Part shown: positions 42,907-47,125 of the stretch, in pieces
Numbering within the stretch: the first letter of the stretch is position 1
How the letters are laid out: each line of letters begins with the position of its first letter
Assembly (NCBI RefSeq): GCF_003334815.1
Contig: NZ_QOWO01000009.1
Direction: 5' to 3' (one strand)
DNA: 64,000 nucleotides
Source of the DNA: Escherichia coli
Lineage (GTDB): Bacteria > Pseudomonadota > Gammaproteobacteria > Enterobacterales > Enterobacteriaceae
The notes under the pieces: generated by a model
Told to the model about the DNA's origin: nothing
The model's input: only the letters and a program-made list of their open reading frames with translations
Databases searched by the model: none
Position numbers and translations under genes: made by a program

Positions 42907-43758
42907 GTGTTAATTATCGAAACCCTGCCGCTGCTGCGTCAGCAAATTCGCCGCCTGCGTATGGAAGGCAAGCGCGTGGCGCTGGTGCCTACCATGGGTA
43001 ACCTGCACGATGGCCATATGAAGCTGGTCGACGAAGCCAAAGCCCGCGCCGATGTGGTCGTCGTCAGTATTTTCGTTAACCCGATGCAGTTCGACCGCCC
43101 GGAAGATCTGGCTCGTTATCCACGGACCTTGCAGGAGGACTGCGAGAAGCTAAACAAACGTAAAGTGGATTTAGTTTTCGCCCCTTCGGTAAAAGAGATC
43201 TACCCGAACGGTACTGAAACCCACACTTACGTTGACGTTCCTGGCCTTTCGACCATGCTGGAAGGTGCCAGCCGTCCGGGACATTTTCGCGGCGTTTCGA
43301 CTATTGTCAGCAAGCTGTTCAACCTGGTCCAGCCGGACATCGCCTGCTTCGGTGAAAAAGATTTTCAGCAACTGGCGCTGATCCGCAAAATGGTTGCCGA
43401 TATGGGCTTCGATATTGAGATTGTCGGTGTGCCAATTATGCGCGCCAAAGACGGTCTGGCGCTAAGTTCCCGTAACGGTTATCTGACGGCGGAACAACGC
43501 AAAATTGCGCCTGGTCTGTACAAAGTTTTAAGTTCGATTGCTGACAAATTGCAGGCTGGGGAACGGGATCTCGATGAAATTATTACCATTGCGGGGCAAG
43601 AACTGAATGAAAAAGGCTTCCGCGCCGATGATATTCAGATTCGCGATGCCGACACATTGCTGGAAGTTTCTGAAACCAGCAAACGGGCAGTAATTCTGGT
43701 AGCCGCCTGGCTTGGCGATGCTCGCCTGATCGACAACAAAATGGTCGAGCTGGCGTAA
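42907..43758 (+). CDS. panC: pantothenate synthetase
   Basis: Track ORF 42907..43758 (GTG start; AAGGAG 9 nt upstream), 283 aa, ...[10 protein letters not shown]... HIGH-type motif. Confidence 0.95.
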
Positions 43759-43762
43759 TACT

Positions 43763-43793
43763 TAACTGGCGCTACGGCTGATGGCGCCAGTTA
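43763..43793. terminator. inverted repeat between convergent panC and yadD (putative bidirectional terminator)
   Basis: TAACTGGCGC / GCGCCAGTTA 10-bp arms with 11-nt loop, followed by TTATTAATTT. Confidence 0.4.
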
Positions 43794-43831
43794 TTAATTT
43801 ACCCCACGTCATCTGTCATAACACAGGTAAC

Positions 43832-44014
43832 TTAAATAAGGTTAATTACCTTATCAATCTCAGCAAGAGGTAAATTTGCCATCTCTGCAACGTCTTCCCG
43901 AGACATTCCTTTACTCAGAAGACGCTGGGCGAATTCCTGACTTACTTCCTGTCTTCCCTGCTGAATCCCCTTCTCAATCCCTTTCTCTTCAAACCACTGC
44001 GCCAGCGTCATCAT
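43832..44014 (-). CDS. candidate intragenic small protein (C-terminal 60 aa of YadD/RpnC; putative Rpn_S-type product)
   Basis: In-frame ATG-ATG doublet (minus-strand start 44014) preceded by ACGGGAGGGGAGTCT (GGAGG 7 nt upstream); would encode MMTLAQWFEEKGIEKGIQQGRQEVSQEFAQRLLSKGMSREDVAEMANLPLAEIDKVINLI; not verified. Confidence 0.4.
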   Translation of the reverse strand: MMTLAQWFEEKGIEKGIQQGRQEVSQEFAQRLLSKGMSREDVAEMANLPLAEIDKVINLI

Positions 44015-44734
44015 AGACTCCCCTCCCGTTTCCCTGTCTCTCAACACACCGTAAAACAAATCCGCTTGTTCAGTATGACCGCGTTGCAGCATATAGTTTT
44101 GCATGGCAACTAACTGACTTCCGCTAGTGTACCCTTCGTCGATCAGCGTGACCAGTTGCTCAAGCAATAACATTAAGTCGCGCTGGCGAATATGTTTTTG
44201 CAGTAGTTCGAGAATCGCAATCCGCCGATGTTGCATGATTTCGTCATCCGGTGTGATGGTGATATCCACCAGCGGGAAAGGACTGTTATAGACGCGTCGC
44301 GCCAGCTCCGGCGAGTAAAACATATCAAACCAGCACATTGATAGCGGATAAGGTGTGGCCTCGCCCTGATAAAACAGTATCGGCACCACCAGCGGCAGCT
44401 TATCGTGGTCAGCCTCCAGATGCCGGTGCATGGCGGCTATAGAATAACGCATCATGCGAAAGGCCATTTTCTTATCCGGCTTGCTTTGGTGTTCAATCAC
44501 AACATGCAGATAACCGGGATTGCCCTGCATTTGCACGGAATAGAGCACGTCCGTGCTGTGTCCTTTCAGGCTCTCTTCAATGAAACTCCCCGACTCTAAA
44601 TGAAGCGTGTTGAGGTCACAAAGTTCGCGTAATTCCACTGGCAAATGTATCTCCAGAAAGTCGCGAGCCGTCTCCGCATGCATTAAAAATTGTTTAAATA
44701 CCGCGTCATGCGGTGTGGTACTCGGTGCATCCAT
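43832..44734 (-). CDS. rpnC: Rpn-family recombination-promoting nuclease (YhgA-like, PD-(D/E)XK, transposase_31 family)
   Basis: Track ORF 43832..44734 (-), 300 aa, MDAPSTTPHDAVFKQFLMHAETARDFLEIHLP...; recognised as YadD (RpnC); AGGGA Shine-Dalgarno upstream. Confidence 0.9.
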   Translation of the reverse strand: MDAPSTTPHDAVFKQFLMHAETARDFLEIHLPVELRELCDLNTLHLESGSFIEESLKGHSTDVLYSVQMQGNPGYLHVVIEHQSKPDKKMAFRMMRYSIAAMHRHLEADHDKLPLVVPILFYQGEATPYPLSMCWFDMFYSPELARRVYNSPFPLVDITITPDDEIMQHRRIAILELLQKHIRQRDLMLLLEQLVTLIDEGYTSGSQLVAMQNYMLQRGHTEQADLFYGVLRDRETGGESMMTLAQWFEEKGIEKGIQQGRQEVSQEFAQRLLSKGMSREDVAEMANLPLAEIDKVINLI

Positions 44735-45007
44735 CTTCCCTGTCTTCCGTGTGGCTTTGCGTGAAGGCAGTATCCAGTCAAGGCGCGCTATCGTCAGCCA
44801 CCTCTTTATTGTTTACCGAGCAGCGTTCAGAGAAATATCAATTCGTTACAGGCGATACATGGCACGCTTCGGCGCGGTACGCAAACTGCTGACGCAAATG
44901 CCGTCAGATGAGTAGACACTAAACAAAAATCGGGCAATACTGCGTGAGAATTTCCTCAAAGCAGGCATCGCCTGCTTCGTTAACGACAGGGTAGAAAGGT
45001 AGAAGTT

Positions 45008-45388
45008 ATGATTCGCACGATGCTGCAGGGCAAACTCCACCGCGTGAAAGTGACTCATGCGGACCTGCACTATGAAGGTTCTTGCGCCATTGACCAGGAT
45101 TTTCTTGACGCAGCCGGTATTCTCGAAAACGAAGCCATTGATATCTGGAATGTCACCAACGGCAAGCGTTTCTCCACTTATGCCATCGCGGCAGAACGCG
45201 GTTCGAGAATTATTTCTGTTAACGGTGCGGCGGCCCACTGCGCCAGTGTCGGCGATATTGTCATCATCGCCAGCTTCGTTACCATGCCAGATGAAGAAGC
45301 TCGCACCTGGCGACCCAACGTCGCCTATTTTGAAGGCGACAATGAAATGAAACGTACCGCGAAAGCGATTCCGGTACAGGTTGCTTGA
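45008..45388 (+). CDS. panD: aspartate 1-decarboxylase proenzyme
   Basis: Track ORF 45008..45388, 126 aa, [31 protein letters not shown] (self-cleavage site G24-S25). Confidence 0.95.
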
Positions 45389-46684: not shown

Positions 46685-47125
46685 TTAATACTCATACAAA
46701 TTATGTTTGAGGACGAAAGGCGGATTTTTTTGTTGTTGGTGCCAAAGACTACTCACCTCCGGCGCACCCAGTTCGACAATACGCTCGCGAAACTCTGAAC
46801 TGGTCATGGTTTCACGGCAAGCCATCATCTGTTCAATTAACGGTAACGTGACACCAGAAATCACTTCGCAACGGGAGTGTTTGTGGCTTAATAATGAAGC
46901 CACGCGATACGGTGGCGCTCCGGCTATATCGGTTAAGAAGATGACACCCTCACCAGAGTCCGCTTCATGCAGAGCATCGCACATCATGCGGCTGAGCATA
47001 TTAGAGCTTAATCCGCGCCAGAAATTCACGGCCCGGCACTGAAGAAGTGCCCCATGTTTTTTCTCCAGCGCATCCAGTATCTCTTGCGCCCGGTCATCGT
47101 GACAGGTAATTACCCAACCTAACAT
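46685..47125 (-). CDS. yadI: orphan PTS EIIA-like protein (mannose/sorbose family)
   Basis: Track ORF 46685..47125 (-), 146 aa, MLGWVITCHDDRAQEILDALEKKHG...; no EIIB/C/D partner genes in the window. Confidence 0.85.
   Translation of the reverse strand: MLGWVITCHDDRAQEILDALEKKHGALLQCRAVNFWRGLSSNMLSRMMCDALHEADSGEGVIFLTDIAGAPPYRVASLLSHKHSRCEVISGVTLPLIEQMMACRETMTSSEFRERIVELGAPEVSSLWHQQQKNPPFVLKHNLYEY

Follow-up and report, generated by a model that had tools for sequence, protein, structure and literature searches.

rpnC (yadD), between panC and panD of Escherichia coli, is very probably a gene-within-a-gene toxin-antitoxin module

The rpnC (yadD) gene of Escherichia coli is, with high confidence, a gene-within-a-gene toxin-antitoxin module that pairs the nuclease RpnC_L with RpnC_S, a small protein nested within the same open reading frame. 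The gene lies in a 64,000-nucleotide stretch of E. coli DNA (hereafter, the window), for which a preliminary description had proposed that an Rpn-family nuclease is held in check by a small protein made from an internal start in the nuclease ORF; this is the architecture published for rpnC (Zhong et al. 2023). The system is already known, as its insertion in the pan cluster was reported in 2017, its internal start in 2019 and its toxin-antitoxin function in 2023. Nevertheless, reading the sequence alone sufficed to identify a nested gene that is real, has been validated by experiment and is missing from standard annotation: RefSeq places one CDS at the rpnC locus and omits the nested gene. The features discussed below are collected in Table 1.

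Table 1. Features of the rpnC locus, in window coordinates.
Feature	Coordinates	Strand	Remarks
rpnC (yadD), full-length CDS, product RpnC_L (toxin)	43832..44734	minus	300-aa ORF; RefSeq name rpnC
Nested ORF rpnC_S, product RpnC_S (antitoxin)	43832..44014	minus	60 aa from ATG1, 59 aa from ATG2
Transposase_31 / YhgA-like PD-(D/E)XK nuclease domain, residues 7-207	44114..44716	minus	Pfam PF04754, E=3e-87
Internal Shine-Dalgarno GGGAGGGGAG	44018..44027	minus	two overlapping cores
Tandem in-frame starts ATG-ATG	44009..44014	minus	ATG1 = M241, 44014..44012; ATG2 = M242, 44011..44009
12-nt tandem repeat, 2.7 copies	43956..43987	minus	encodes EKGI EKGI QQGR... in helix 1; TRF
Candidate sigma-70 promoter TGGTCA-N17-TACACT	44126..44154	minus	prediction; ~105 nt upstream of internal start
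panC	42907..43758	plus	convergent with rpnC
panD	45008..45388	plus	divergent from rpnC
Hairpin, 12-bp stem	43763..43793		lies in the 73 nt that separate the stop codons of convergent panC and rpnC

The coordinates agree with the initial account of yadD as a minus-strand ORF of 300 codons that separates panC from panD, both of which lie on the plus strand. Its insertion between these two genes has been described (Kingston et al. 2017, PMC5350276), and in several genera the gene occupies a conserved panC-panD slot. When a 1.2-kb query spanning the gene was searched against 5426 complete E. coli genomes, 5416 contained a match over at least 80% of its length. The hairpin in the gap between the convergent stop codons is likely a shared or bidirectional terminator for panC and rpnC, and in MG1655 the rpnC-panC pair has been catalogued as a convergent excludon (PMC12288877).

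RpnC_L had been characterized as a YhgA-like PD-(D/E)XK (transposase_31) protein, and the Pfam match over the nuclease region (Table 1) confirms this. Its score against the NCBIfam family profile TIGR01784 (298.4 bits) exceeds the cut-off of 52.1. The protein was compared with 64 Enterobacterales Rpn homologs that share 41-96% identity. The catalytic-type residues D10, D62, E81, Q83, R93 and the PDDE sequence at 162-165 are invariant or nearly so in this set, and they align with D11, D63, E82, Q84, R94 and D165 of RpnA, all of which have been tested by mutagenesis (PMC5350276). The NCBIfam RpnA equivalog model scores the protein at 311 bits, under its cut-off of 583, which identifies RpnC as a paralog distinct from RpnA. 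A phmmer search of the PDB with full-length RpnC returned chance hits only, and the only matches in PADLOC v2.0.0, which has no Rpn model, were weak ones to RmrA and C3a178.

On the minus strand, the sequence around the internal start reads ...GAAACGGGAGGGGAGTCTATGATGACG... and contains, just as the preliminary description claimed, an in-frame ATG-ATG doublet directly after the Shine-Dalgarno sequence GGGAGGGGAG. The two cores of this element are differently spaced: GGAGG precedes ATG1 by 7 nt, and GGAG precedes ATG2 by 6 nt, the latter distance being equal to the AAGGAG-N6-ATG spacing of the paralogs. The calculated energy of the duplex formed with the 3' end of the 16S rRNA is -10.8 kcal/mol, which ranks 9-10 among the 5954 ATG/GTG/TTG contexts of the window and 3-4 among its 2017 ATGs. 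The element had been called stronger than most genuine starts, and it does exceed 32 of the 34 CDS starts that RefSeq annotates in the 41 kb around it (median -5.55), with only two being stronger. The primary start of rpnC is weak, as it is preceded by GGAAG (-3.5 kcal/mol) and ranks 28th of the same 34. Initiation at 44014/44011, as proposed earlier, is supported. A published initiation signal lies inside the gene, and the RpnC_S clone of Zhong et al. begins ATGATGACGCTGGCGCAG, i.e. at ATG1 of ATGATG (PMC10400941). However, the start validated by mutation within the family, M244 of RpnA (Zhong et al. 2023, PMC10400941), aligns with RpnC M242, the second ATG at 44011, and not with ATG1.

The internal start is conserved well beyond this allele. 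An ATG occupies the M242 column in 61 of the 64 homologs and is followed by an invariant Thr, and the M241 column is a Leu in 49. Most homologs carry a GGAG-type motif ~6 nt upstream of the M242-column ATG, and the amino acid contexts that encode it differ (KE, EE, GE or GGE). The energy of the motif falls within the top 5% of the codon positions of its own gene in 38 of 64 homologs, and the observed Shine-Dalgarno is stronger than the median of its synonymous recodings in 63 of them (mean -8.3 versus -4.8 kcal/mol). Direct inspection of 15 Escherichia alleles revealed that the GGAGG core and the ATGATG are kept in every one; conservation among orthologs, singled out at the outset as a way to check the reading, speaks in its favor both through this invariant core and through the GGAG-type motif that homologs encode with other amino acids. 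Megablast searches of 5426 E. coli genomes with 61-nt segments, one covering the internal start and two serving as controls, produced similar identity bands that carry no site-level information.

Translation from ATG1 yields MMTLAQWFEEKG...KVINLI and ends with a stop codon at 43834..43832, in agreement with the 60-residue C-terminal product that had been predicted from 44014. In the RpnL-RpnS description, nested starts of this kind fall about 50-75 codons ahead of the stop. A profile built from 20 RpnS sequences matches the crystal structure of RpnA_S (7TH0_A) with E=1.3e-11 over residues 1-47 of 49. RpnC_S is predicted to consist of one long helix and two short ones, as an AF2 model of the 59-aa form (pLDDT 82.8) places helices at residues 3-33, 38-44 and 49-58. 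A Foldseek search of the PDB with this model returned no significant match (best E=0.43, with 7TH0 absent from the top 50), an uninformative outcome given the model's small size and high helix content. Matches of the RpnS profile to designer pentatricopeptide-repeat proteins were rejected, as they are sums of numerous weak repeats, each with E>60. In Pfam scans, DUF4351 (PF14261) matched neither RpnC_S nor the enterobacterial RpnS set.

Four-residue repeats begin at approximately residue 10 of RpnC_S, inside the interval of 8-20 residues from the initiating Met given for RpnS proteins, and their number changes readily because they are encoded by the 12-nt tandem DNA repeat, which TRF finds in 5-7 copies in other strains. 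Across the 15 Escherichia alleles the small protein varies from 50 to 74 aa, mostly via this repeat, and the lengths within the RpnS family step by four (49, 53, 57 ... 77). The RpnC_S+REPEAT gBlock used by Zhong et al., its 12-nt insert encoding KGIE left aside, is identical nucleotide-for-nucleotide to positions 44014..43832 of the window. In strain 2012C-4221 the toxin is frameshifted, and the small ORF and its Shine-Dalgarno are intact.

For rpnC itself, published work demonstrates an internal initiation signal, both tagged proteins, toxicity, SOS induction and recombination upon overexpression, and neutralization by a repeat-matched partner. The internal start of yadD was mapped by retapamulin ribosome profiling (Ribo-RET) and was accompanied by conservation at synonymous sites (Meydan et al. 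2019, 10.1101/520783), and an Onc112/retapamulin initiation signal inside rpnC was also reported by Zhong et al. 2023 (PMC10400941). SPA-tagged RpnC_S and RpnC_L were both seen on immunoblots (PMC10400941), and RpnS levels are higher than RpnL levels (Zhong et al. 2023, PMC10400941). Overexpression of RpnA-RpnD lowers viability and induces a DNA-damage reporter, and in the case of RpnC raises RecA-independent recombination 2.9-fold (PMC5350276). RpnC_S blocks RpnC-dependent SOS induction, as monitored with dinD-lacZ, only when the two partners have equal numbers of 4-aa repeats (PMC10400941 Fig. 4D). In vitro nuclease activity, an L2S2 complex and pH dependence were described for RpnA only (Zhong et al. 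2023, PMC10400941); by analogy, RpnC would be expected to possess nuclease activity in vitro, to form an L2S2 complex that dissociates at pH 9-10 and to cleave more at alkaline pH. Phage defense has been demonstrated for the plasmid paralog RpnP2 only, and no defense phenotype has been reported for chromosomal rpnC; a defensive role for RpnC is likewise conceivable by extension from RpnP2.

The module is, with high confidence, read as follows. The full ORF is translated from its weak ribosome-binding site into RpnC_L, a PD-(D/E)XK DNA endonuclease (residues ~7-207) followed by a C-terminal helical oligomerization domain, and the strong internal Shine-Dalgarno together with the ATG-ATG lets ribosomes translate the final 59-60 codons separately, producing RpnC_S, probably on a shorter transcript made from an internal promoter. 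RpnC_S is the free form of the C-terminal domain of RpnC_L; its long first helix would pair with the identical domain in the toxin and keep the nuclease inactive, and pairing requires the two partners to have equal numbers of 4-aa repeats. Should RpnC_S fall or dissociate, RpnC_L would be expected to damage DNA, induce the SOS response and stop growth; by analogy with RpnP2, its release could limit the spread of phage.

A candidate for the internal promoter, TGGTCA-N17-TACACT, was found upstream of the nested start. By PWM it ranks among the best 0.09% of positions in the window, yet this score is no better than that of rpnC control regions, and a stricter consensus promoter scan returned nothing on the minus strand, this candidate included. 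Synonymous sites within its two hexamers are conserved across the rpnC clade and the Serratia/Erwinia paralogs, and the codons of the spacer vary. Start sites determined by dRNA-seq inside all rpn genes are cited by Zhong et al. 2023 (PMC10400941). It is possible, although we consider it rather doubtful, that two details extend what has been published: that the doubled start of the rpnC clade, with two overlapping Shine-Dalgarno cores each spaced to one ATG, produces two proteoforms (60 and 59 aa) or more antitoxin; and that the nested gene has its own promoter at 44154..44126, kept at synonymous sites from Escherichia to Serratia/Erwinia, with toxin-dead alleles such as that of 2012C-4221 persisting as orphan antitoxins that neutralize an incoming rpnC with an equal repeat number. 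The kind of system is the same whether or not the doubled start, the promoter and the orphan antitoxin are real.

Several other explanations of the locus were considered. The Shine-Dalgarno-like run could simply result from the use of Gly-Gly-Glu codons, and the ATG-ATG could be only a pair of internal methionines, such that no separate protein is made. The preliminary description itself cautioned that the run is spelled by the Gly/Glu codons GGA GGG GAG, and for rpnC taken alone this caution is justified: synonymous recodings of the ETGGES codons still yield a strong element (mean -8.9 kcal/mol), 13% of them being at least as strong as the one observed (P=0.13), and conservation of Met242 and Thr243 could reflect the structure of the full-length protein. 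Because Gly-Gly-Glu gives a Shine-Dalgarno with most codon choices, recoding of rpnC alone cannot separate selection from chance, and the case against chance therefore rests on the family comparison and on published experiments. A GGAG-type motif sits at an equal distance in the paralogs, where other residues and the less common codons AAG/GAG spell it, and all but one of the 64 homologs exceed their null median. In addition, profiling of initiation-stalled ribosomes and a tagged small protein are published for rpnC, and the homologous site in rpnA is abolished by mutation (Zhong et al. 2023); a peak is reported for rpnC, and a peak together with loss of the product on mutation for the family. 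We regard a chance origin as very improbable. It is also highly unlikely that the element serves mainly as an elongation pause that aids the folding of RpnC_L, with the small protein being incidental and functionless. Internal Shine-Dalgarno-like sequences can cause ribosomes to pause, and this one lies where the nuclease region gives way to the helical C-terminal domain. A pause, however, would have no need of a conserved ATG at fixed spacing, and some strains have a free-standing rpnC_Ss or retain RpnC_S after a frameshift in the toxin. Moreover, when RpnC_S is provided in trans, SOS induction by RpnC is suppressed, and this effect is specific to repeat number (PMC10400941).

The small C-terminal product observed in vivo might instead be a proteolytic fragment of RpnC_L. 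RpnC_L is detectable on the same blots, and internal-start mutants are described in the available part of Zhong et al. 2023 (PMC10400941) for rpnA, rpnB, rpnP2 and a C. difficile gene, with none described there for rpnC; the assignment of the small RpnC band to the internal start consequently rests on ribosome profiling and homology. Ribosome profiling with two different initiation inhibitors nonetheless gives a signal inside rpnC, RpnS exceeds RpnL and transcription is reported to start internally (PMC10400941), mutation of the rpnA start removes its small protein (PMC10400941), and the frameshifted 2012C-4221 allele retains the small ORF with its Shine-Dalgarno, all of which make proteolysis an extremely improbable source. 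Lastly, rpnC could be the transposase of a degenerate insertion sequence in the pan cluster, with a DNA-binding HTH at its C-terminus. The family name Transposase_31, an older annotation as a 'putative transposase', an 'ISNCY family transposase' as the top NCBIfam match and faint similarities of the C-terminus to HTH_7/HTH_3 and to resolvase/DeoR-like domains all point in this direction, as does the conserved panC-panD slot. However, the NCBIfam match reaches only 322 bits where the cut-off is 583, and every HTH similarity lies above E=0.001. No inverted repeats flank rpnC within 43600-45100, where the sole direct repeats are two 13-nt copies that fall within or overlap rpnC. Across the E. coli genomes, the query has 6482 places, of which only 35 are plasmid-borne, with a median of one per genome, and a transposase function has been argued against, with neither terminal repeats nor target duplications (Zhong et al. 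2023, PMC10400941). We judge this explanation to be exceedingly unlikely, and retain the reading of rpnC as a nuclease toxin with a nested antitoxin.

Among known systems, the closest comparison is with RpnA (YhgA) of E. coli K-12, which belongs to the same Pfam/TIGR family and shares its catalytic residues at positions shifted by one. Its Shine-Dalgarno AAGGAG aligns with the GGGGAG of RpnC, each located 6 nt upstream of the start in the homologous column, and is encoded by Lys-Glu, whereas RpnC uses Gly-Gly-Glu. RpnA_S (7TH0) and RpnC_S are homologous C-terminal small proteins that both carry 4-aa repeats in helix 1, but RpnC differs from RpnA in having a doubled start (ATG-ATG) and a doubled Shine-Dalgarno. 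RpnP2, from a plasmid of E. coli ECOR13, has the gene-within-gene toxin-antitoxin architecture in common with rpnC and has been demonstrated to defend against T-even and BASEL phages; the likeness drawn here is one of architecture. In some E. coli the same small protein is also encoded by a separate gene downstream of rpnC, rpnC_Ss or ypaA (rpnE_Ss), as exemplified by the 69-aa copy in strain E143, and RefSeq names such genes 'RpnC/YadD family protein'; in contrast to such strains, the window contains the nested ORF only and no second copy. Zhong et al. linked DUF4351 to free-standing RpnS proteins, a domain that RpnC_S does not match.

More distant parallels are found in two other types of system. 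In the type I-D CRISPR protein Cas10d (cited in Zhong et al.), an in-frame internal start similarly produces a C-terminal fragment, Cas11d, that interacts with the full-length product. The proteins are unrelated, and Cas11d cooperates with Cas10d, whereas RpnS antagonizes RpnL. Classical type II toxin-antitoxin operons likewise employ a protein antitoxin that binds and neutralizes a protein toxin and whose expression signals are the stronger of the two. Unlike in those operons, however, the antitoxin of RpnC is the toxin's own C-terminal domain, encoded in the same frame, and the specificity of the pair is set by the number of repeats.

The sequence features noted for this locus in the preliminary description are confirmed, and the nuclease gene with an intragenic small-protein module proposed there is supported. 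The locus holds an already described nested toxin-antitoxin module, RpnC_L/RpnC_S, in which the full-length toxin (RpnC_L, 300 residues) encloses its C-terminal antitoxin (RpnC_S, 60 or 59 residues). Retapamulin ribosome profiling had located the internal start within yadD (Meydan et al. 2019, 10.1101/520783), and immunoblots had revealed both RpnC_S and RpnC_L as SPA-tagged proteins (Zhong et al. 2023, PMC10400941). When the 12-nt insert is removed from the RpnC_S+REPEAT gBlock of Zhong et al., the remainder is nucleotide-identical to positions 44014..43832. That study, which cites transcription starts within all rpn genes, demonstrated that the small proteins (RpnS) block growth inhibition and SOS induction by their cognate long toxins (RpnL), and for RpnA DNA cleavage as well; RpnA_L and RpnA_S form a complex that is consistent with an L2S2 tetramer and dissociates at pH 9-10 (PMC10400941). 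One extra KGIE repeat on either RpnC partner abolishes neutralisation and its addition to both restores it, and phage protection was observed with the plasmid RpnP2, not with rpnC (PMC10400941). Viability drops and a DNA-damage reporter is induced when RpnA-RpnD are overexpressed, and RecA-independent recombination rises upon overexpression of RpnC (Kingston et al. 2017, PMC5350276). Our literature search found no later paper that alters the published account of RpnC.

Features of the rpnC locus, of the rest of the window and of comparison loci (positions refer to the window unless a locus is named)
Feature	Position	Strand	Basis or remark
rpnC ORF, 300 codons	43832..44734	-	ORF translation of window
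panC	42907..43758	+	flanks rpnC
panD	45008..45388	+	flanks rpnC
Internal SD, GGGAGGGGAG	44027..44018	-	sequence
ATG1	44014	-	sequence
ATG2	44011	-	sequence
Candidate promoter, TGGTCA-N17-TACACT	44154..44126	-	looser PWM, top 0.09% of window positions
12-nt tandem repeat, 2.7 copies	43956..43987		encodes 4-aa units
Hairpin, 12-bp stem	43763..43793		73-nt gap between convergent panC and rpnC stop codons
CssrA sRNA	908-1017	-	Rfam, 136 bits, above gathering threshold
t44 RNA	1856-1942	-	Rfam, 83.5 bits, above gathering threshold
HtrA 5'-UTR thermometer	10813-10858	-	Rfam, 77 bits, above gathering threshold
Free-standing second small-protein copy	L075 1655-1864		E. coli E143
Free-standing second small-protein copy	L079 1230-1445		
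Free-standing second small-protein copy	L082 1656-1853		

As described previously, rpnC separates panC from panD on the strand opposite to both; the 64-kb window contains no tRNA genes. Of 5426 complete E. coli genomes, 5416 contain a match to at least 80% of a 1.2-kb query spanning rpnC, and RefSeq names the matched gene rpnC. The toxin contains a Transposase_31 domain (Pfam PF04754, residues 7-207, E=3e-87) and reaches 298 bits with NCBIfam TIGR01784 ('Rpn family recombination-promoting nuclease/putative transposase'), whose cut-off is 52. Mutagenesis has shown that RpnA activity requires D11, D63, E82 and Q84, as well as R94 and a PDDE motif (PMC5350276). Because the RpnC counterparts of these residues (D10, D62, E81, Q83, R93 and PDDE 162-165) show little or no variation among 64 homologs, the RpnC nuclease looks intact.

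Around the internal start, the sequence of the minus strand is GAA ACG GGA GGG GAG TCT ATG ATG ACG, and initiation at ATG1 yields the 60-residue peptide quoted in the preliminary description (MMTLAQWFEEKG...KVINLI). Pairing of the internal SD with the 3' end of 16S rRNA is worth -10.8 kcal/mol, which ranks 9-10 among the 5954 NTG contexts and 3-4 among the 2017 ATG contexts of the window. The statement that it surpasses most genuine starts nearby holds, as of the 34 CDS starts that RefSeq annotates across the surrounding 41 kb (median -5.55) only those of speE and yadI are stronger, and the primary rpnC start (-3.5) ranks 28th. This pairing of a weak toxin start with a strong antitoxin start agrees with the finding that RpnS is more abundant than RpnL (Zhong et al., PMC10400941). 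SD-like runs at least as strong also precede TTG or GTG codons within other ORFs at 46745 and 60613 (minus strand), 30216 and 7145, for example GCCGGAGGTGAGTAGTCT-TTG at 46745 within yadI; since they lack an ATG, most of these are probably due to chance.

The earlier caution that an SD-like run encoded by Gly/Glu codons could itself arise by chance is fair for rpnC alone. When the seven codons upstream of the internal start were replaced by synonymous ones according to the codon usage of the Rpn family, the recodings still averaged -8.9 kcal/mol and 13% equalled or exceeded the real SD. It is the family comparison, not rpnC alone, that settles the matter in favor of more than chance. Scanning one genome per species yielded 74 Rpn loci, of which 64 were full-length and aligned (41-96% identity). 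An ATG occupies the column of RpnC M242 in 61 of these, the other three, all from Pseudocitrobacter, having it one column earlier, and the residue after the conserved Met is always Thr. In most homologs AAGGAG or GAGGAGG ends ~6 nt before this ATG, despite differences in the residues that it encodes (KE, EE, GE or GGE). For 38/64 homologs, the SD energy ranks in the top 5% of codon positions within the same gene, and in 63/64 the real SD surpasses the median of its synonymous recodings (mean -8.3 versus -4.8 kcal/mol); the sequences are related, so these counts exaggerate how many independent events occurred, but the same bias recurs in many distinct amino-acid contexts. Neither the GGAGG core nor ATGATG changes among 15 Escherichia alleles; the codon just 5' varies (ACG, ACA, TCG or ATG), and GAG is replaced by AAG in three.

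Both candidate ATGs were included in the start originally proposed. The RpnA_S start (AAGGAG-N6-ATG ACT ATT GCG), which is abolished by K240R/E241D/M244L (Zhong et al., PMC10400941), aligns with ATG2, and in RpnC a GGAG (44021..44018) lies 6 nt before ATG2. The ATG1 column is Leu in 49/64 homologs. A separate GGAGG lies 7 nt before ATG1, and ATG1 is the codon from which RpnC_S was cloned (Zhong et al., PMC10400941). Either ATG1 or ATG2 may therefore be the codon used. That the conserved family start aligns with the second ATG of RpnC is a small addition to the published account, as is the doubled SD.

A strict consensus scan revealed no promoter on the minus strand, and a looser PWM detected a candidate inside rpnC, ~105 nt before the internal start. 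Its TGGTCA and TACACT hexamers are conserved, even at synonymous positions (GTC, TAC, ACT), among rpnC orthologs and the paralogs of Serratia and Erwinia, and the intervening spacer codons change freely; its PWM score is no higher than those of control parts of rpnC. Another paralog group carries ATGACA-N17-TTTAAT ~27 nt further downstream. Both elements are possible internal promoters for RpnS transcripts, and the conservation of the first at synonymous sites is a further small addition, as a candidate only.

From the conserved Met, RpnS proteins of the family are mostly 49, 53, 57, 61, 65, 69, 73 or 77 residues long. The length of RpnC_S in Escherichia spans 50 to 74 residues. What varies is a stretch of 4-aa units (EKGI, RQEG, RQEV and similar) that starts at ~residue 10. 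The underlying 12-nt repeat reaches 5-7 copies in other strains. A 20-sequence RpnS profile matches nearly the whole chain of PDB entry 7TH0 ('Recombination-promoting nuclease RpnA', 49 aa; E=1.3e-11). The AlphaFold model built from the RpnS alignment (pLDDT 82.8) predicts a long helix (3-33), to which the repeats map, and short helices at 38-44 and 49-58; this predicted arrangement of one long and two short helices agrees with how RpnA_S has been described. Designer pentatricopeptide-repeat proteins in the PDB also gave high summed profile scores through a common helical-hairpin motif ('eAlriArrMLekGid'), a likeness that we rejected since no single repeat is significant by itself (E>60). Faint similarities to HTH_7, HTH_3, KorA, DeoR and resolvases were seen for RpnC_S (43832-44014) and the RpnS alignment. 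All of these probably reflect convergent helical motifs, which may lie behind the old 'invertase' label.

The panC-rpnC-panD order is shared by other Escherichia species, Pseudocitrobacter and Salmonella enterica subsp. diarizonae. In these loci (L007-L010, compared with 42907-45388) RpnC is only 61-64% (Pseudocitrobacter) or 57% (diarizonae) identical to the window copy, as compared to 85-90% for PanC and 96-98% for PanD, so rpnC either evolves much faster than its conserved slot or was acquired independently at the same site; two independent insertions between panC and panD have been argued (Kingston et al. 2017, PMC5350276). No flanking inverted repeats were found around rpnC, evidence against an insertion sequence of the conventional kind. 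For MG1655, a published survey counts rpnC-panC, together with yadE-panD, yfcH-rpnB and rpnA-bioH, among convergent excludons with overlapping transcripts (PMC12288877). Some strains carry a free-standing small protein between rpnC and panC (65-71 aa, with its own 12-nt repeat array), named 'RpnC/YadD family protein' in RefSeq and rpnC_Ss by Zhong et al. (PMC10400941); the window contains no such copy. Finally, a natural allele with a frameshifted toxin and an intact nested antitoxin exists, another small addition to the published account. This allele, from E. coli 2012C-4221 (L081; NZ_CP027437.1, 317-1244), has an 11-nt deletion at gene nucleotides 640-650 (~44085-44095 in the window), upstream of the internal start, that frameshifts RpnC_L and leaves the SD, ATGATG and a 72-aa RpnC_S ORF intact, an orphan-antitoxin state like that of the K-12 rpnD pseudogene.
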